Shown here one piece after another: positions 14,500 to 33,972 of a DNA stretch of 64,000 nucleotides. Source of the DNA: Clostridia bacterium (GTDB lineage Bacteria > Bacillota > Clostridia > UMGS1883); contig JBJDXJ010000052.1 in NCBI GenBank assembly GCA_051866635.1, positions 14,744-78,743 of the forward strand, written 5' to 3'. The notes under the pieces were generated by a model. That model had not been told where the DNA came from and ran no database searches. It saw only the letters and a program-made list of their open reading frames with translations. How positions within the stretch are numbered: position 1 is the stretch's first letter; each line of letters starts with the position of its first letter. A program made the position numbers and the translations under genes.

Positions 14500-14800
14500 G
14501 TATATTTTTATGGCTATTTTCGCAATGGCAATCACCACATATCTGATAAGAATGTTGCCTATGGCAATTTTCAGAAAGAAAATTGAAAACAAGTGGATAA
14601 AGTCATTTTTGTATTATGTACCTTATGCGGTTTTATCTGCCATGACTTTTCCTGCCGTGTTTACCAGTACAGGCAGTGTACTTGGTGCAAGTTTAGGCTG
14701 TGTTACAGCCATAGTTCTGGCATATTTCAATAAGGGCCTTTTAACTGTTGCAATCGGTGCGGCAGTTATGGCTTTCCTGGTTCAGATAATAGGGGGTTAA
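14489..14800 (+). CDS. azlD: branched-chain amino acid transport protein AzlD
   Basis: ~100-aa hydrophobic protein overlapping the azlC end. RBS ggaggagag lies upstream of ATG 14489. Confidence 0.7.
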   Translation: MSSKYIFMAIFAMAITTYLIRMLPMAIFRKKIENKWIKSFLYYVPYAVLSAMTFPAVFTSTGSVLGASLGCVTAIVLAYFNKGLLTVAIGAAVMAFLVQIIGG

Positions 14801-25204: not shown

Positions 25205-26497
25205 ATGGGAAAGAAAGTTGGATTTCTTGCACTTGGGTGCAAGGTTAATCAATATGAAGTTGATGCGTATACGGCAATGTTTAAAGAAGCAGGATTTGAA
25301 ATTGCTTCTTTTGACGATGTGTGCGATATATATGTTATAAATACATGTTCTGTTACAAATCTTGGTGACAGAAAAAGCAGACAGATGATAAGAAGGGCAA
25401 AGGCAAAAAATCCCTGTGCAATTGTTGTCGCCACAGGTTGCTATGCACAGGTCAGCTATAATGAGGTTTCTGAAATGGAAGAGGTTGACCTTTGTATAGG
25501 GACAAGCCTTCGCTCAAAGATTGTGGAGCTTACAGAGAAAGCCTTAAACGGGGAAGATGTAAATGCCTATGTTGACATTATGAAGGTCAGAGGGTTTGAA
25601 GAACTGGAATGTGAAAGCGTAACAGAAAGAACAAGGGCAAACATAAAAATACAGGACGGATGCGATAACTTCTGCTCATACTGCATTGTGCCTTATGCAC
25701 GTGGCCCGGTAAGGTCAAGAAAACTTGAAAGTATCATAAAAGAGGCACAAAGAATTGCAGATTTAGGCTTTAAAGAAGTTGTGCTTACAGGTATCAGCGT
25801 TGCAAGTTACGGCAAAGATACTAAGGAATGTAAACTTATTGATGTTATTGAAAAGGTTTGCGAAATTGACAAAATTGAAAGAGTGAGACTGTCGTCAATT
25901 GACCCTGTTGCTTTTAGTGATGACTTTATTGAAAGACTGTCAAAACAACCTAAGGTATGCGACCATTTTCACATTTCCCTTCAAAGCGGCAGTGATGAAG
26001 TGTTAAAAAATATGAACCGTAAGTACAAAACGGCAGAATACCTTGATATGCTAAACCGCATAAGGGCAAAAATGCCTTATGTAGGCATAACCACTGACAT
26101 TATAGAAGGCTTCCCGGAGGAAACGGAAGAAAATTTTGAAGAAACAAAATCTTTTGCACGAAAAGCAGGCTTTTCAAAGATACATGTGTTCCCTTATTCC
26201 GAGCGTCGTGGCACAGCGGCGGCACAGATGCCCCAAATACCGATGCCCTTGCGTGAAAGAAGGGCGAAGGAACTGGGCTTAATCGGGGAAGAATTAAAGT
26301 GCAATTATGAAAAGAGCTTTGTTGGCAAAAAAGTGGAAGTCCTTTTTGAGCAGACTAAAAAAGGTTACACGGAAGGGTTAACTAAAAATTATCTGAGGGT
26401 GTTTGTGGAAGAAAACGAAACACTTCACAATAATTGTGCAACTGTTGAAATTTTAAACTATGATGGCGGAAAGCTTTACGGAAGGGTTGTTAAATGA
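25205..26497 (+). CDS. mtaB: tRNA t6A37 methylthiotransferase (MiaB-like, MtaB)
   Basis: N-terminal MTTase domain (LGCKVNQYE...INTCSVT). Radical SAM CDNFCSYC. C-terminal TRAM domain. 430 aa. Confidence 0.8.
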   Translation: MGKKVGFLALGCKVNQYEVDAYTAMFKEAGFEIASFDDVCDIYVINTCSVTNLGDRKSRQMIRRAKAKNPCAIVVATGCYAQVSYNEVSEMEEVDLCIGTSLRSKIVELTEKALNGEDVNAYVDIMKVRGFEELECESVTERTRANIKIQDGCDNFCSYCIVPYARGPVRSRKLESIIKEAQRIADLGFKEVVLTGISVASYGKDTKECKLIDVIEKVCEIDKIERVRLSSIDPVAFSDDFIERLSKQPKVCDHFHISLQSGSDEVLKNMNRKYKTAEYLDMLNRIRAKMPYVGITTDIIEGFPEETEENFEETKSFARKAGFSKIHVFPYSERRGTAAAQMPQIPMPLRERRAKELGLIGEELKCNYEKSFVGKKVEVLFEQTKKGYTEGLTKNYLRVFVEENETLHNNCATVEILNYDGGKLYGRVVK

Positions 26498-27804
26498 AAA
26501 ATCTATCATATTCAAGAATAATAGCAATAGGCTTTTTTGTGATGATACTTATAGGCACTATGCTTTTAATGCTTCCCATATCATCACAAAGTGGCAGTTG
26601 GACAGGTTTTTCGGAAGCCTTCTTTACTGCGGTGAGTGCACAGTGTGTTACGGGGCTGGTAATTGTTAATACTGCAACACATTGGTCACTTTTCGGTCAA
26701 TTGGTGATTTTGTTTCTAATCCAGACGGGCGGATTGGGTTTTATATCCATAAGCGTATACCTGTCCATTATGATGAAAAGAAAGCTAAGTTTGCATCAAC
26801 GAGGACTTTTTCAGGAAAGCATGAACACCCTTGAGATGTCGGGAATAACACATTTGACAAAAAGGATAATGATAGGCGTGTTCAGTTTTGAACTTATGGG
26901 TGCAATACTTTTGTTGCCAACCTTTTTAAAAAGCTTTTCTGTTCCAAAAGCATTGTATTACAGCGTTTTTCATTCAATATCGGCATTTTGCAATGCGGGA
27001 TTTTCCACTTTGGATGGAAATTTGATTAATATGCACGATAATATATTCTTCTGCGTTGTAATAATGCTCCTTGTAACTATAGGCGGTTTGGGATTTATAG
27101 TGTGGGATGATTTGTATGTAAATAAACTGCATTTTGCCAGTTGGCGTTTGCACACCAAAATAGTTGTTTTAATGACAGTTGCAATAACTTTATCGGGTGC
27201 GGTGCTTTTGTTTATTACAGAGAGGGGAACTGTCCTTGAAAGTATGACTTGGGGCGAAAAAATAACTGCATCATTTTTCGGTGCGGTGACTGCCAGAACG
27301 GCAGGGTTTAACACAATTGATGTTGCATCATTAAGTGATGGCGGTAAATTAATCACAATGGTTATTATGTTTATCGGCGGAAGCCCCGGCAGCACGGCAG
27401 GCGGTATAAAGACAACAACCTTTCTGGTAATTCTTGTTTTTATACTGTCGAACTTTAAAAGGACACAACCAAATATTTTCGGCAGAAGGCTTGAAGATGA
27501 TTCTGTAAGAAAGGCTACAACGGTATTTGCAACAAATCTTTCCCTTGTTATAATTGCAAGTGTTGTGCTTTGTAGTATTACAAATATAAATCTGACGGAC
27601 ACGCTGTTTGAAACGGTATCTGCCATAAGTACTGTGGGTATGAGCAGTGCAGGTACCGAAAACTATGGCAGAATTGGTGCATATGTTATAGCCATCCTGA
27701 TGTATTTGGGGAGAGTTGGCAGTATGACATTTGCGGTATCGTTCTTTGAAAAAAAGAAAAAAGTTGCAATAGGCTATTTGCCTGAAAGGATTGCGATAGG
27801 TTAA
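26494..27804 (+). CDS. ktrB: Ktr/Trk-type potassium uptake membrane subunit
   Basis: Repeated selectivity-filter-like TGGLGFI and GGSPGSTAGGIKTTT segments, typical of TrkH/KtrB. Confidence 0.85.
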   Translation: MKNLSYSRIIAIGFFVMILIGTMLLMLPISSQSGSWTGFSEAFFTAVSAQCVTGLVIVNTATHWSLFGQLVILFLIQTGGLGFISISVYLSIMMKRKLSLHQRGLFQESMNTLEMSGITHLTKRIMIGVFSFELMGAILLLPTFLKSFSVPKALYYSVFHSISAFCNAGFSTLDGNLINMHDNIFFCVVIMLLVTIGGLGFIVWDDLYVNKLHFASWRLHTKIVVLMTVAITLSGAVLLFITERGTVLESMTWGEKITASFFGAVTARTAGFNTIDVASLSDGGKLITMVIMFIGGSPGSTAGGIKTTTFLVILVFILSNFKRTQPNIFGRRLEDDSVRKATTVFATNLSLVIIASVVLCSITNINLTDTLFETVSAISTVGMSSAGTENYGRIGAYVIAILMYLGRVGSMTFAVSFFEKKKKVAIGYLPERIAIG

Positions 27805-27816
27805 GGAGGAAAAACA

Positions 27817-28476
27817 ATGAAAAATAAAAATGTATTGGTCATAGGCATGGGCAGATTCGGTCAACATCTTTGCAAAAAGCTCTATGAGCTTAATAACGAA
27901 ATAATGGCAATTGATATAGACGAACCTGCTCTTGATAACGTGAGCGAATATGTTGCCACAGCACGTATTGCGGACTGCACAAACCCCGAAGTTTTATCAA
28001 GCATCGGTGTGACGGATTTTGACATATGCATTGTGTGCATAGGAAATAATTTTCAAAACAGTCTGGAAATTACAAGCCAGCTTAAGGACATGGGTGCAAA
28101 ATATGTTATAAGCAAAGCAAATCGTGATATACAGGCAAAGTTCCTTCTTCGTAACGGTGCCGATGAAGTCATTTATCCCAACCGTGACATGGCAGAAAAA
28201 TTGGCAAGAAGGATAAGCATAAACCATATTTTTGACTATATTGAATTAACGGGCGAATACGGAATATATGAAATCCCTGCTCTTGATGAATGGGTTGGGA
28301 AAAGCATTAAAGAATCAAACATACGTGCCAATTACCACGTTAATGTTATCGGGACTAAAGTTATGGAAAAAACAAATGTTATGCCCATGGCAGATTACGT
28401 AATAAGTAAAGACGAGCATCTTATAGTTGTGGCATCACAAAAGGAAATTGACAAGATTGTAAAGAAAATACGTTGA
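27817..28476 (+). CDS. ktrA: Ktr/Trk potassium uptake NAD-binding regulatory subunit
   Basis: Rossmann motif VLVIGMGRFGQHL (RCK_N) + RCK_C domain. 219 aa. Confidence 0.85.
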   Translation: MKNKNVLVIGMGRFGQHLCKKLYELNNEIMAIDIDEPALDNVSEYVATARIADCTNPEVLSSIGVTDFDICIVCIGNNFQNSLEITSQLKDMGAKYVISKANRDIQAKFLLRNGADEVIYPNRDMAEKLARRISINHIFDYIELTGEYGIYEIPALDEWVGKSIKESNIRANYHVNVIGTKVMEKTNVMPMADYVISKDEHLIVVASQKEIDKIVKKIR

Positions 28477-28559
28477 TACATCATTAGGTAAAATTCTATA
28501 AACAATAGGTTTTTTCGGAAAAATTATAGGACTAAGACTAAAAAAATGTAAAAATTATA

Positions 28560-28588
28560 TTGACAAATTATCTCTTTTGTAGTAGAAT
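28560..28588 (+). promoter_or_regulatory. sigma-A promoter TTGACA-N17-TAGAAT upstream of yceD-rpmF
   Basis: Consensus -35 plus a near-consensus -10. Confidence 0.6.
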
Positions 28589-28629
28589 TGAACTCGCTGA
28601 AAATGCCCATAGGTGGCAGAGGTGATAAC

Positions 28630-29136
28630 ATGAAAATAAATATTGCAAGTGTCATCAACTGTGACGGCGCAAAGCTTGATATTGAAAAGGAGTTCCCCAT
28701 AGGCTCTTTTGAGTTTGCAGGGAATGAGTATTCCTTTGAAAAACCTGTGAAAGTTACAGGTGAAATCAGAAATATCGGCAGTGCGTTGAGGATTATCCTC
28801 AATGTTTGGGGTGAGTACACGGCTTTTTGTGATCGTTGCGGCTGTGATGTAACAAAATCTGTTGCTAGTGCAACAGAGGAGGACATTACAGAAGGCAATG
28901 ATGATTTTGACGAAGAGATGTTTTCAATCGTAGGACATACGTTAGATATTTCCGGTGCGGTTGAATCTTTAGTGTACAGTAGTCTTCCTATGCGTAATCT
29001 GTGCAGTGACGATTGTAAGGGTTTATGCCCTAAATGCGGTACAGATTTAAACAAATCAGAATGTAATTGCGATACGACAAGGTATGACCCTCGTTTCGCT
29101 ATTTTCAGAAAATTAGCAGGAAATGGTGAGGTGTGA
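28630..29136 (+). CDS. yceD: YceD/DUF177 family protein (23S rRNA accumulation protein)
   Basis: Conserved position immediately upstream of rpmF. C-terminal CDRC...CPKCG...CNC metal-binding motif. Start set to the ATG at 28630 with a gaggtga RBS. The ORF-track start lies inside the promoter -10. Confidence 0.75.
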   Translation: MKINIASVINCDGAKLDIEKEFPIGSFEFAGNEYSFEKPVKVTGEIRNIGSALRIILNVWGEYTAFCDRCGCDVTKSVASATEEDITEGNDDFDEEMFSIVGHTLDISGAVESLVYSSLPMRNLCSDDCKGLCPKCGTDLNKSECNCDTTRYDPRFAIFRKLAGNGEV

Positions 29137-29139
29137 AAA

Positions 29140-29319
29140 ATGGCAGTTCCTAAGCACAGAACTTCTAAAATGAAGAAGCGTCAGAGAAGAGCAAACTGGA
29201 AGCTTCTTATTCCCGGCATGGTAAAGTGCTCTCATTGCGGCGAGTATACAAAGCCCCACATGGTATGTAAGGCTTGCGGTTACTATGACGGTAAGGAAAT
29301 CGTAAAGGTAGAAGCGTAA
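29140..29319 (+). CDS. rpmF: 50S ribosomal protein L32 (59 aa)
   Basis: Absent from the ORF track (<60 aa). Translation [59 protein letters not shown]. Confidence 0.9.
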
Positions 29320-29384: not shown

Positions 29385-29461
29385 TGTCGATATAGCTCAG
29401 CAGGATAGAGCGACCGCCTCCTAAGCGGTAGGTCGGAGGTTCGAATCCTCTTATCGACGCC
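29385..29461 (+). tRNA. tRNA-Arg (anticodon CCU)
   Basis: Cloverleaf folded by hand: acceptor GTCGATA/TATCGAC, D-stem GCTC/GAGC, anticodon stem ACCGC/GCGGT with loop CTCCTAA, T-stem GGAGG/CCTCT with TTCGAAT loop, encoded CCA. Confidence 0.85.
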
Positions 29462-29462
29462 A

Positions 29463-29494
29463 GAAAAAACGACTTGTTTCGACAAGTCGTTTTT
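29463..29494. terminator. terminator hairpin after the tRNA
   Basis: aaaaaacgacttgt-ttcg-acaagtcgtttttt. Confidence 0.75.
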
Positions 29495-29499
29495 TCATC

Positions 29500-29700
29500 G
29501 ATATAAATTCCTGAAGGAATTTGCTATATATACTTCATATGCGATATATCTTCGATTCGATATGTTGCCTTATGGCAACGAGTAGAGGAATTTATATCAT
29601 ATCGCAACAAAGCGAAGTGGAGTTATATCGAATTTGCGAAGCAAATATATTGCACGAGCGAGAGCGAGTATATCGCTAATTAAATTAGATATCTCTATGG
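29500..29700. repeat. cluster of short inverted/direct repeats with ATATCG / GCGAAG cores
   Basis: aaattcctgaaggaattt palindrome. Also gcgatatatcttcgattcgatatg, ttgccttatggcaa, atatcgcaacaaagcgaag, atatcgaatttgcgaagca and gcgagagcgagtatatcgc. Confidence 0.5.
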
Positions 29701-29797: not shown

Positions 29798-29826
29798 TTG
29801 CAAACTACGTTATAGTGTGGTATAAT
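29798..29826 (+). promoter_or_regulatory. promoter TTGCAA-N17-TGgTATAAT (extended -10)
   Basis: Near-consensus hexamers ~150 nt upstream of the GNAT start codon. Confidence 0.55.
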
Positions 29827-29974
29827 TTAGCACGAAAGTCATCGGAGGACAGTACACCGTAGTGTAGGGGAGCAAATTCAGTTTGCGGCCGCCTGTCGGA
29901 TAAGATGTCGAGTGAGCTCGGTTATTACTTTTAGTAACAGCCGGGTATTTTTATTTTTTAGGGGGATTTATTAT

Positions 29975-30514
29975 ATGAAAAACACAAAGGTTGCTCTTAT
30001 GCCGCTGACGGCGGACGACCGTGAACAGTTCATTCTTGACAACCAGGAAGCATTTAGGTTCGGAGCACTTGAGGAGTTTGGCAAACGTGATGACCATTTG
30101 GATCTTGATGGGGAAATTATTTCTCGAAAAACTATTGAGGAGAGTATTGACTCCGAGGATGCTGAAACATATCGCATTATGCTTGACGGCGAAAAGGTTG
30201 GCGGTGTGATCCTTAAAATTGATAACAAAACACATCACAACCATCTTGATATTCTCTTTGTTTCCCCAAAGGTACACAGCAAAGGTATAGGCTACAAAGC
30301 ATGGCAGGCGGTAGAAGAGATGCACCCTGAAACCAAAATTTGGGAGACCTGTACACCTTATTTTGAAAAACGGAATATACATTTTTATGTGAACAAGTTA
30401 GGCTTTCATATTGTGGAATTTTTCTGTGAATATAATACTGACAATAACTGCCCGGAAGAAAAGCCCTCAGACGGACCTGATGAAATGTTTAGATTTATAA
30501 AAGTAATGAAGTAG
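29975..30514 (+). CDS. GNAT-family N-acetyltransferase
   Basis: Acetyl-CoA-binding segment ILFVSPKVHSKGIGYKAWQAV. Start set to the ATG at 29975 with an aggggga RBS. The ORF-track GTG start at 29912 would read through a terminator-like hairpin. Confidence 0.7.
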   Translation: MKNTKVALMPLTADDREQFILDNQEAFRFGALEEFGKRDDHLDLDGEIISRKTIEESIDSEDAETYRIMLDGEKVGGVILKIDNKTHHNHLDILFVSPKVHSKGIGYKAWQAVEEMHPETKIWETCTPYFEKRNIHFYVNKLGFHIVEFFCEYNTDNNCPEEKPSDGPDEMFRFIKVMK

Positions 30515-30600
30515 GCAGAATTGAGCCTGACTGTATGCGGTCAAATATACGCTTTTTCATTTCCTCCTTGGTTAGATCCTTCCGGTCGAGAGAGCCAACA
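30506..30600. pseudogene. ~90-bp duplicated fragment of the pdaA-like gene (copy of 30893-30990, ~92% identity)
   Basis: attgagcctgactgtatgcggtcaaa[t/a]atacgctttttcatttcctcct... is present twice. The fragment supplies the GNAT TAG stop. The annotated 30495-30773 minus-strand ORF is an artefact spanning it. Confidence 0.7.
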
Positions 30601-30735
30601 TTCGACACAAAAGTCTTTACAGTGTTTACATAAGTCACGAAGTTTTTGAAATTCGCGAAATAGCTGACATTCAGCTTGATGAAAATGGTATAAAATGAAA
30701 GATGTTCATCAGTCAGCAAAGTTGATAGCTTCTCC

Positions 30736-31494
30736 TCAAGGGGAAGCCTTGTACTGCCGCCCTGTATGGTCAATTGAGTAGTTTTCTTTGTAAATTAAAT
30801 CAGAAACACGTACAAATTCATACCCTTCATCTTTAAGAGATTGAAGTATTCCCGGAAGGGCAGAAGCAGTCTGCTTTGTACCGTTATGGAAAAGTAGGAT
30901 TGAGCCTGACTGTATGCGGTCAAAAATACGCTTTTTCATTTCCTCCTCTGTTAAATCCTTCCAGTCGAGAGAGTCAACATCCCATTGTATGCAAAAACGC
31001 CCTGTTTCTTTTGCGGCTAAAATTGAATTATTTGTATAATCCCCTGATGGTGCACGCATTATATTCGGGCGAAAACCTAAAACAGATTCAATTACGCTGT
31101 CGCATTTATCCATGTCTGATATAATTTCATCCTTTGAAAGTGTAGAATACAGTGTATGATTATAGCTGTGCGAGCCTATTTCGTGACCGTTTGAATGAAG
31201 TTTTTTTAAGGCTTCGGGGAAACGTTCTGCCCAATCACCTGTTACAAAGAAGGTGGCAGGACAGCTGTATGCACACAGTACATTTATAATTTGGTCAATG
31301 TCGTCATCATTCCATGCACTGTCAAAGGTGACGGCTATTTTTTTATCCTGTCTTTCTACAGAGTAGATAGGCAGTTCCTTGCTTTTTACACTTGTTTCAA
31401 CACTTTTGAACAGCTTTGGTACACAGGCAGATGATACCAGAATGGCGGCTAAAAGAAGAAAAATAGTGTGTTTTGTAATTACAAAGATTTTCAT
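30736..31494 (-). CDS. pdaA: polysaccharide deacetylase (NodB domain; PdaA-like N-acetylmuramic acid deacetylase)
   Basis: N-terminal signal/TM. NodB motifs TFDSAWNDD and HSYNH. Immediately downstream of cwlD. Confidence 0.7.
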   Translation of the reverse strand: MKIFVITKHTIFLLLAAILVSSACVPKLFKSVETSVKSKELPIYSVERQDKKIAVTFDSAWNDDDIDQIINVLCAYSCPATFFVTGDWAERFPEALKKLHSNGHEIGSHSYNHTLYSTLSKDEIISDMDKCDSVIESVLGFRPNIMRAPSGDYTNNSILAAKETGRFCIQWDVDSLDWKDLTEEEMKKRIFDRIQSGSILLFHNGTKQTASALPGILQSLKDEGYEFVRVSDLIYKENYSIDHTGRQYKASP

Positions 31495-33737: not shown

Positions 33738-33972
33738 GAAGTAGAAAATAGCGAAATACATTGCTCTGCGGTGTGCGTATATATCGGGGCACTATTTGAA
33801 CCAACACATTTTTTTAGGGAGAATGACCTCGGATCGCTGCGTGTAAGCTCTCCCTCGCTTTGCGACGAAGAGAGAAACCCATAACCGGTTCGGAATTCAC
33901 CCACCTGCTTTGCAGGTTTCAAATAAGCTTCATTTACGGCATTGTGGGGCACTTTTTATAGGAGGAGTTATC
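33738..33972 (+). ncRNA. candidate structured 5' leader / cis-regulatory RNA (family unassigned)
   Basis: 230 nt of non-coding sequence with several stems: agggagaa...ctctccct, ctctccctcgc/gcgacgaagagag, acctgctttgcaggt, and ggggcac repeated at both ends. No ORF. Confidence 0.3.

Follow-up and report, generated by a model that had tools for sequence, protein, structure and literature searches.

The 64,000-nucleotide (nt) window analysed here (positions 14,744 to 78,743 of contig JBJDXJ010000052.1, Clostridia bacterium; all coordinates without a locus name are positions in this window) encodes, on the forward strand, a GNAT N-acetyltransferase of 179 amino acids (aa) (ATG at 29975, stop codon at 30512-30514; Pfam Acetyltransf_1, E 5e-10). 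The gene lies downstream of a sigma-70-type promoter (29798-29826) that consists of the -35 box TTGCAA (29798-29803), a 17-nt spacer and the extended -10 box TGgTATAAT (29818-29826); this promoter matches 10 of the 12 consensus positions and carries the extended -10 TG, in a sequence where the frequency of promoter-like sites does not exceed that found after shuffling. The region 3' of the promoter is a GC-rich leader of about 140 nt that ends in an intrinsic terminator (29916-29959; stem-loop 29916-29946, -14.1 kcal/mol; U-tract UUUUUAUUUUUU at 29948-29959) directly before the ribosome-binding site (RBS) of the GNAT gene (AGGGGG, 29960-29965). A preliminary description of the locus reported these elements together with a mini-open reading frame (mini-ORF) of 9 codons (MSSELGYYF, ATG to TAG, 29905-29934), and all of them are present; it also considered the leader riboswitch-like, with mutually exclusive terminator and antiterminator structures, and the strong covariation in homologous leaders described below agrees with this view. 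We conclude that the leader is, very probably, a cis-acting terminator/antiterminator RNA and, as a fuller explanation that we consider likely, a candidate transcriptional ON riboswitch with a contiguous, unknotted pocket resembling that of the guanidine-IV and Gd4v RNAs, by which exporters and acetyltransferases would be switched on by a small cation. This motif class is widespread in gut Clostridia; neither Rfam nor, as far as checked, the literature includes it.

The leader contains an aptamer-like domain, P1-P2-P2a-P2b-P3 (29838-29920), that was delineated with a covariance model built from relatives (R1) and by thermodynamic folding, in which the minimum free energy (MFE) structure of the window transcript 29838-29921 is exactly this arrangement (-23.4 kcal/mol). 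Transcription would start near 29832-29835, about 3-6 nt ahead of the motif. The 5' strand of P1, CAUC (29840-29843), lies inside the conserved segment GUCAUCGGA and pairs with GAUG (29904-29907), which holds the ATG of the mini-ORF; in the window copy, the two conserved strands read GUCAUCGGAG and AUAAGAUG. P1 is separated from P2 by an internal loop formed by J1/2, GGAG (29844-29847), and J2/1, GGAUAA (29898-29903; consensus (R)GAUWA). P2 (GACAG/CUGUC, 29848-29852 and 29893-29897) spans 29848-29897 and encloses two hairpins, P2a (29853-29866, loop CGUA at 29858-29861) and P2b (29867-29892, stem GCAAA/UUUGC), the latter being an optional insert that is missing from short variants, which have 3-4 unpaired nt instead. 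The last element of the domain is the antiterminator hairpin P3, CGAG-UGAG-CUCG (29909-29920, loop 29913-29916, -3.7 kcal/mol). The 5' arm of the terminator begins with the loop and the 3' strand of P3, so that the two structures (29909-29920 and 29916-29946) compete for the same nucleotides; in the MFE structure of the full leader, P1 and P2 are kept and P3 is swapped for the terminator. The RBS is not sequestered and, therefore, control would be transcriptional. Taken alone, the folding energy of this single leader is statistically unremarkable (MFE -38.3 kcal/mol, z-score -1.54; 12 of 200 shuffles fold equally well or better), so that its meaning had to be judged by comparison with relatives.

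The GNAT family has more than 7,900 matches in Clostridia; below the top match, which is 93% identical to the window protein, the closest ones are about 72-79% identical. Through this protein, we retrieved 80 genome loci, mostly from human and ruminant gut, in metagenome-assembled genomes (MAGs) labelled Eubacteriales, Oscillospiraceae, Acutalibacteraceae and Ruminococcaceae. The non-coding upstream regions of these loci are 76-90% identical in nt to the window leader and the proteins are about 70-76% identical, so that the leaders are conserved at least as well as the proteins; the evidence against chance is comparative. The signature CAYCGGAGG is found at the expected place in 72 of the 80 fetched loci; in 5, the upstream region is cut by contig ends; in L058, a MATE gene lies between the motif and the GNAT gene; and the motif is missing only from L009 and L053. 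In L009, a leader sequence that was considered as an alternative riboswitch for the same GNAT is actually a duplicated 3' fragment of a tRNA (TTCAAGTCACGCCACCAGCTCCA) located after the tRNA. Another orthologous GNAT gene, in L020, is preceded by a diverged copy of the motif (2880-2955, 41.9 bits) in which the GGA of J1/2 is changed to GUA and P1 is weakened (AAUC:GGUG); this copy could represent a switch in decay or, alternatively, a variant of different specificity.

In an alignment of 50 distinct leaders that were found through the protein alone, 95.5% of the cells form standard pairs, compared with 23-38% in controls in which the partner strand was slid, and 11 of the 18 pairs show changes on both sides. 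The internal-loop nucleotides GGA(G) and (R)GAUWA between P1 and P2 are invariant in this set: G7, G8 and A9 in J1/2, and the G, A, U and final A in J2/1. A broader collection was obtained by scanning metagenome contigs with the pattern GTCAYCGGAGG-N24-54-GATWAGRTGT, which returned at least 120 stretches; among the matches listed, about 108 are real, with P3 and a U-run present, and 14 are chance matches. R1 separates the two kinds, with at least 30 bits for real copies and at most 25 bits for chance pattern matches, and finds a single match in the 64-kb window (29838-29928, 75.1 bits, E about 5e-16). The motif copies come overwhelmingly from gut MAGs and gut metagenomes.

When 100 distinct copies were aligned to R1, 99.2% of the cells were paired (25-41% in the slid controls), and 10 of the 15 pairs in P1, P2, P2a and P3 showed double changes. 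P1 is formed in all 100 copies, and its variable pair (columns 5/93) is C-G in 57 and U-A in 43 of them, with zero mismatches or wobbles, even though any of the four combinations could have passed the search pattern. In P2, 44 copies have A-U and 9 have G-C at columns 12/84; double changes occur at all four pairs of P2a; and all four pairs of P3 covary, with 99.5% of the cells paired. A competing mini-hairpin, GYC-(R)GAUWA-GRU, which was proposed by RNAalifold and showed apparent triple covariation in the GNAT-only set, was rejected because it shows 13 mismatches and 14 wobbles in the wider set, against none for P1, and because column 84 covaries with column 12 instead. Competition between P3 and the terminator is also seen in relatives: of 154 distinct copies, 126 have an MFE structure of the segment from P3 to the U-run in which the 3' strand of P3 is re-paired into the terminator, and the other 28 are mostly, judging from the cases inspected (for example, L095), apparent failures of the crude automatic detection of P3 and the U-run. 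Thus, folding and the comparison of homologous leaders revealed both a conserved structure and alternative structures.

The motif precedes genes of several unrelated families. Among the 91 copies with a called gene downstream, 51 precede MATE exporters of several subfamilies, 26 precede members of the GNAT family found in the window, 4 precede other GNATs (of the Acetyltransf_1 and Acetyltransf_3 types), 3 precede ABC exporters and 1 precedes an MscS channel; in L058 and L200, the motif is located at the head of MATE-GNAT operons. A conserved, covarying structure in front of mutually non-homologous genes is a hallmark of a cis-regulatory RNA, and the composition of this regulon (MATE and ABC exporters, GNATs, MscS channel) points to a detoxification response. 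In L152 (7590-7672 and 11105-11187, minus strand) and L181, two copies of the motif, each before a near-identical MATE gene, are located about 3.5 kb apart on the same contig; the regulated unit has thus been duplicated in tandem. In L095 (1684-1748) and L196, the motif is followed by a glycoside-hydrolase family 1 frame, an outlier to the exporters and acetyltransferases; this frame ends at 151 aa and may, therefore, belong to a truncated gene or a pseudogene.

The preliminary description likened the leader to those of antibiotic-modifying acetyltransferases, an analogy that found no support; the same RNA is mostly located before MATE exporters. A structured leader in front of an acetyltransferase gene is what the motif has in common with leader-peptide attenuators and with the disputed 'aminoglycoside riboswitch' of aac/aad leaders, but it differs from them in the lack of a conserved peptide and in the prevalence of exporters downstream; to our knowledge, there is no sequence similarity between the motif and the aac/aad leader. 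In the window, the mini-ORF overlaps P1, P3 and the terminator by position, as would be expected if its translation controlled the terminator by ribosome-mediated attenuation, as in erm/cat leaders. We consider such attenuation extremely improbable: the ATG is part of the GAUG strand of P1, which is replaced by GGUG in 57 of the 100 distinct copies; neither the length nor the sequence of the peptide is conserved, nor is any Shine-Dalgarno sequence; conservation concerns, instead, the pairing of the RNA, in which changes are compensatory. The leader-ORF interpretation of the preliminary description was, therefore, abandoned.

The same comparative data bear on antitermination that depends on a protein, in which an RNA-binding regulator would attach to the internal loop and to the loops of P2a and P3 and protect P3 from the terminator by stabilising it. 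Conservation of the internal loop and of both tetraloops is indeed not accounted for by any obvious base-pairing role, and the resistance of P3 to the terminator is not explained by computed energetics alone. However, no regulator gene is consistently linked to the motif, which in many neighbourhoods precedes a monocistronic GNAT or MATE gene, and the core is the same in sequence as that of a riboswitch that is proven to bind a small molecule. A reading of the internal loop as a k-turn or loop-E was also tried, and, by inspection, it fits neither consensus. Altogether, protein-dependent antitermination appears quite unlikely.

The riboswitch in question is guanidine-IV (mepA, or GGAM-1), a split aptamer that consists of a 5' hairpin loop and the terminator hairpin's loop; upon ligand binding, these loops kiss as a pseudoknot and block completion of the terminator (Lenkeit 2020, PMC7736828; Salvail 2020, bioRxiv 10.1101/2020.10.21.349134). 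The guanidine-IV regulon includes sugE/EmrE as the commonest genes and also MATE, PnuC and GNAT. Gd4v is a variant of guanidine-IV with an orphan ligand, which likewise has two hairpins with kissing loops and, in addition, an extra hairpin, D2, atop the terminator; it is enriched in the gut and precedes mainly PRK07324 transaminase genes but also GNAT and MATE genes (Lenkeit 2022, PMC9788692). In the supplements of these papers, the guanidine-IV 5' loops contain GUCACCGGAC, GUCGCCGGAU or GCCACCGGGU, and the 3' loops contain CUUAGGUCAUUGUG or GUUAGGCCAUAGCA, with terminator loops such as UUAGGUC and UUAGGCC; in these sequences, ACC co-occurs with GGU, and GCC with GGC. The Gd4v segments given there are CUGUCACCGGACAG (5') and GUCGUAGGUAC (3').

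We compared the motif strands GUCACCGGAG and AUUAGGUG with these published loops. The strands of P1 together with their flanks (GUCAYCGGA and UWAGRU) match the two conserved loops of both guanidine-IV and Gd4v; the consensus segments of the motif are GUCACCGGAGG (5') and AUUAGGUGUC (3'), and those of the window copy are GUCAUCGGAGG and AUAAGAUGUC. Thus, the motif and guanidine-IV share the conserved pair (U)C-R-Y-C-G-G-A and U-W-A-G-R-Y, the 5' strand of P1 being the counterpart of the loop of hairpin 1 in guanidine-IV and Gd4v (UC-R-CC-GGA), and UWA of J2/1 with the 3' strand of P1 the counterpart of UUAGG in the terminator loop of guanidine-IV. In both RNAs, the two conserved strands pair and covary, and in the motif CAYC pairs with GRUG in all of the 100 copies, although the helix is nested and not a pseudoknot. 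In guanidine-IV, the loop 1 mutation G26U abolishes guanidine binding, and A63U shows that an A in loop 2 is essential (Salvail 2020, 10.1101/2020.10.21.349134); the binding-essential G and A match positions 29844/29845 and 29903 of the window, which are invariant among the 50 leaders retrieved through the protein. Further likenesses are the intrinsic terminator as the platform, with what is probably the same ON logic, and, for both guanidine-IV and Gd4v, the MATE and GNAT genes and the gut Firmicutes hosts. With Gd4v in particular, the motif shares an identical 5' strand, UCACCGGA, and a hairpin located 2-3 nt after the 3' pairing strand (D2 in Gd4v, P3 here). Judging from these shared sequences, the motif most plausibly works with the same pocket module as guanidine-IV and Gd4v, in which the ligand pocket is made by the kissing loops, and the three RNAs may have a common ancestry.

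The architecture of the motif, in contrast, differs from that of guanidine-IV in several respects. The 5' segment is not carried by a hairpin: the upstream sequence is AU-rich and unconserved, and a -10-like box is located 0-25 nt upstream in most relatives (11 nt in the window), so that the mRNA starts with the 5' strand and a 5' hairpin arm would have no space. The 3' segment, AUWAGRUG, lies 5' of P3 and the terminator rather than in the terminator loop, and the terminator loops are variable. The two strands are joined by P2, so that their pairing is an ordinary nested P1 helix, which includes an extra C-G pair, and P3 is a separate antiterminator hairpin. In Gd4v, D2 caps the terminator, whereas P3 overlaps the terminator arm and the fold of the motif is nested. 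There is also a difference in the associated genes, with no association of the motif with sugE, PnuC or B3/B4 genes and no PRK07324 transaminase among the 91 contexts. Contiguous-aptamer ON riboswitches, such as the adenine and guanidine-I classes, resemble the motif in having a contiguous aptamer whose 3'-most helix (P3 in the motif) shares nucleotides with the terminator stem; however, the motif matches none of the 4,227 Rfam 15 families.

Given that the two-hairpin architecture that defines guanidine-IV and Gd4v is not found here, we did not file the motif under either class. It is very unlikely, in our view, to be an ordinary, already known member of one of these classes that has merely been drawn differently. 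It is true that guanidine-IV and Gd4v have conserved strands of identical sequence, and Rfam 15 cannot arbitrate: in a search with both gathering and E-value thresholds, it yielded no match in the window leader even at E<=10, nothing relevant across 31 loci and none in 20 diverse loci, but it also failed, even at E<=10, to detect a canonical guanidine-IV element (L061:2069-2160) used as a positive control, so that its silence is uninformative on kinship with guanidine-IV. Set against this are the lack of a hairpin around the 5' strand and the position of the 3' strand before the terminator, not inside its loop. In addition, the signature strings of the motif and the names of 12 motif-bearing contigs are absent from the readable part of the supplements of both papers, which does not include the Gd4v alignment (not readable as text), so that a prior listing is possible; literature searches found no description of the nested architecture. 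The preliminary description could assign no known class to the leader, which holds with respect to Rfam but not with respect to the core sequences, which match the published guanidine-IV and Gd4v loops.

Canonical guanidine-IV was also sought elsewhere. A BLAST search of plasmids for a canonical locus gave no match, and a pattern scan of viral contigs gave chance matches only. Canonical elements are found, however, right beside the motif in three of 200 loci, L061 (2069-2160), L147 and L049 (5-95), where the hairpin loop is CCACCGGG and the terminator loop is GUUAGGUCUUUGAA. In this syntenic arrangement, the guanidine-IV element precedes a gene for a 238-aa PnuC-like membrane protein, directly upstream of the new motif and the GNAT gene, and the PnuC-like gene is found only under the separate canonical guanidine-IV element.

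These observations can be combined into a mechanism by which the leader could act as a ligand-dependent switch. The nascent RNA, starting a few nt before GUCAUCGGAG, would fold as a rod in which P1 (CAUC:GAUG) and P2 flank the asymmetric GGAG/GGAUAA loop, with P3 as a small hairpin one U after P1. The ligand, a small cation such as guanidine or a relative of it, would bind in the internal loop and stabilise P1, which, as the gap of a single U suggests, may then stack on P3 and hold it, possibly with the assistance of a contact between the loops of P2a and P3. The 3' strand of P3 would thereby be kept from the far stronger terminator (29916-29946), and the RNA polymerase would read through into the GNAT gene; without the ligand, the terminator would displace P3 and transcription would end at the U-tract (29948-29959). 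The proposed loop-loop contact is speculation, prompted by the complementarity of two conserved loops, CGYA in P2a and UGMG in P3 (alignment columns 23-26 and 102-105; window 29858-29861 and 29913-29916), as in CGCA:UGCG, in the double change CGCU:AGCG (L085) and in CGCA:UGUG (L196). The combined length of P2 and P2a is about equal to that of P1 and P3, so that the two loops could meet if the internal loop acted as a hinge.

Several points weigh against the interpretation of the leader as such a riboswitch. Energetically, a P1 of 4 base pairs (bp) and a P3 of 4-5 bp face a terminator of 13-16 bp, and computed energetics alone leave the resistance of P3 unexplained; as for the loop contact, the commonest loop pair, CGUA:UGAG, which is also that of the window, has a central G.A mismatch and accounts for 64% of the copies, and there are only two compensatory events. 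On the comparative side, invariance at many positions of the 100-copy alignment is imposed by the search pattern, and only the 50 protein-retrieved leaders, which come from related organisms, test it independently; that alignment was, moreover, fitted to the structure of the model, which inflates the paired percentages, and P1 varies at just one of its four pairs. The likeness to guanidine-IV rests on about 15 nt and might have arisen by convergence, signature genes of guanidine regulation are missing (sugE/EmrE in 0 of 91 contexts), and the canonical guanidine-IV elements beside the motif in three loci may mean that the two RNAs sense different ligands.

If the likeness were indeed due to chance or convergence, the motif would be an independent riboswitch class with a ligand such as a polyamine, an antibiotic or another gut-derived substrate of MATE exporters. 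The architecture, wholly unlike that of guanidine-IV and Gd4v, the lack of sugE and transaminase genes and the adjacent canonical elements are all compatible with such independence, and so is the similarity of the GNAT protein to polyamine acetyltransferases. The window GNAT has no sequence homolog in PDB, and its structure model, which is confident (predicted local distance difference test score, pLDDT, 81.6), has, according to a fold search, a generic GNAT fold whose nearest structural neighbours are SpeG/PaiA-type polyamine acetyltransferases; it equally resembles a Lactobacillus curiae GNAT, 8osp (TM score 0.71, 13% identity), both values being generic for the GNAT fold. We take 8osp to be the guanidine-IV-controlled L. 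curiae GNAT of the 2022 Lenkeit study, which gives no PDB code. Because these fold matches are generic and there is no PDB homolog, no ligand can be deduced from the GNAT. An independent class, nevertheless, appears unlikely: the roughly 15 core nucleotides match in the same order and the same pairing register, including residues that are essential for guanidine binding, and guanidine-IV and Gd4v are associated with the same gene classes and host range.

Within the guanidine-IV/Gd4v-like reading, the nature of the ligand can be narrowed down to some extent. Guanidine or a close derivative is favoured because the pocket nucleotides and the MATE and GNAT genes are shared with guanidine-IV and Gd4v; plain guanidine is disfavoured because sugE/EmrE is missing among the 91 contexts and because canonical guanidine-IV adjoins the motif in some genomes. 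Guanidine itself is, on balance, a possible, if somewhat doubtful, ligand. We suggest, only tentatively, that the motif might be an undescribed riboswitch class in which a contiguous, unknotted, rewired guanidine-IV/Gd4v pocket senses a gut cation other than free guanidine, possibly the ligand of Gd4v, and switches on a MATE/ABC/GNAT detoxification regulon in hundreds of uncultured Clostridia.

If this interpretation is correct, a natural aptamer made of two kissing loops has been rewired as a nested helix with its pocket nucleotides kept, which would be a topological rearrangement in riboswitch evolution. As of a 2024 single-molecule study, there was no atomic structure of guanidine-IV, and the short form of the motif, of about 65 nt, would offer the simplest, compact contiguous scaffold for solving a guanidine-IV-type pocket. 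The motif would also provide a second, independent handle on the orphan ligand of Gd4v, with MATE/ABC efflux and acetylation defining how the cell handles the compound. Hundreds of exporter and acetyltransferase genes in abundant uncultured Clostridia of the gut and rumen would be marked as inducible by a single signal, which is relevant to the handling of xenobiotics and metabolites in the gut. Given that Rfam 15 misses both the new motif and canonical guanidine-IV, such leaders go unannotated.

The surroundings of the GNAT gene in the window have several further features. About 340 nt upstream of its promoter, there is a tRNA-Arg(CCU) gene (29386-29462) with its own terminator hairpin (region 29386-29497); this tRNA and the tRNA fragment in L009 hint that the GNAT cassette occupies tRNA-linked integration sites. 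The tRNA terminator and the GNAT promoter are separated by an AT-rich spacer (29500-29700) with many short words of the ATATCG/CGATAT type; its sole ORF is an implausible 52-codon frame (29521-29679). On the other side, an 85-nt direct repeat (92% identity) starts 3 nt past the GNAT stop codon (30517-30601), and its second copy (30896-30980) lies inside a polysaccharide-deacetylase gene (30736-31494, minus strand). A fragment of the deacetylase gene has thus been duplicated next to the GNAT gene, which suggests a past rearrangement or insertion. Farther downstream, the window contains a 6S RNA gene (33760-33954, forward strand; Rfam RF00013, 94.5 bits). Upstream of the tRNA, the region 26494-29319 contains, as read from the translations, genes for TrkH-like (26494-27804) and TrkA-like (27817-28476) potassium uptake proteins, a DUF177/YceD-like protein (28588-29136) and ribosomal protein L32 (rpmF, 29140-29319), which appear to be ordinary housekeeping genes unrelated to the riboswitch unit.

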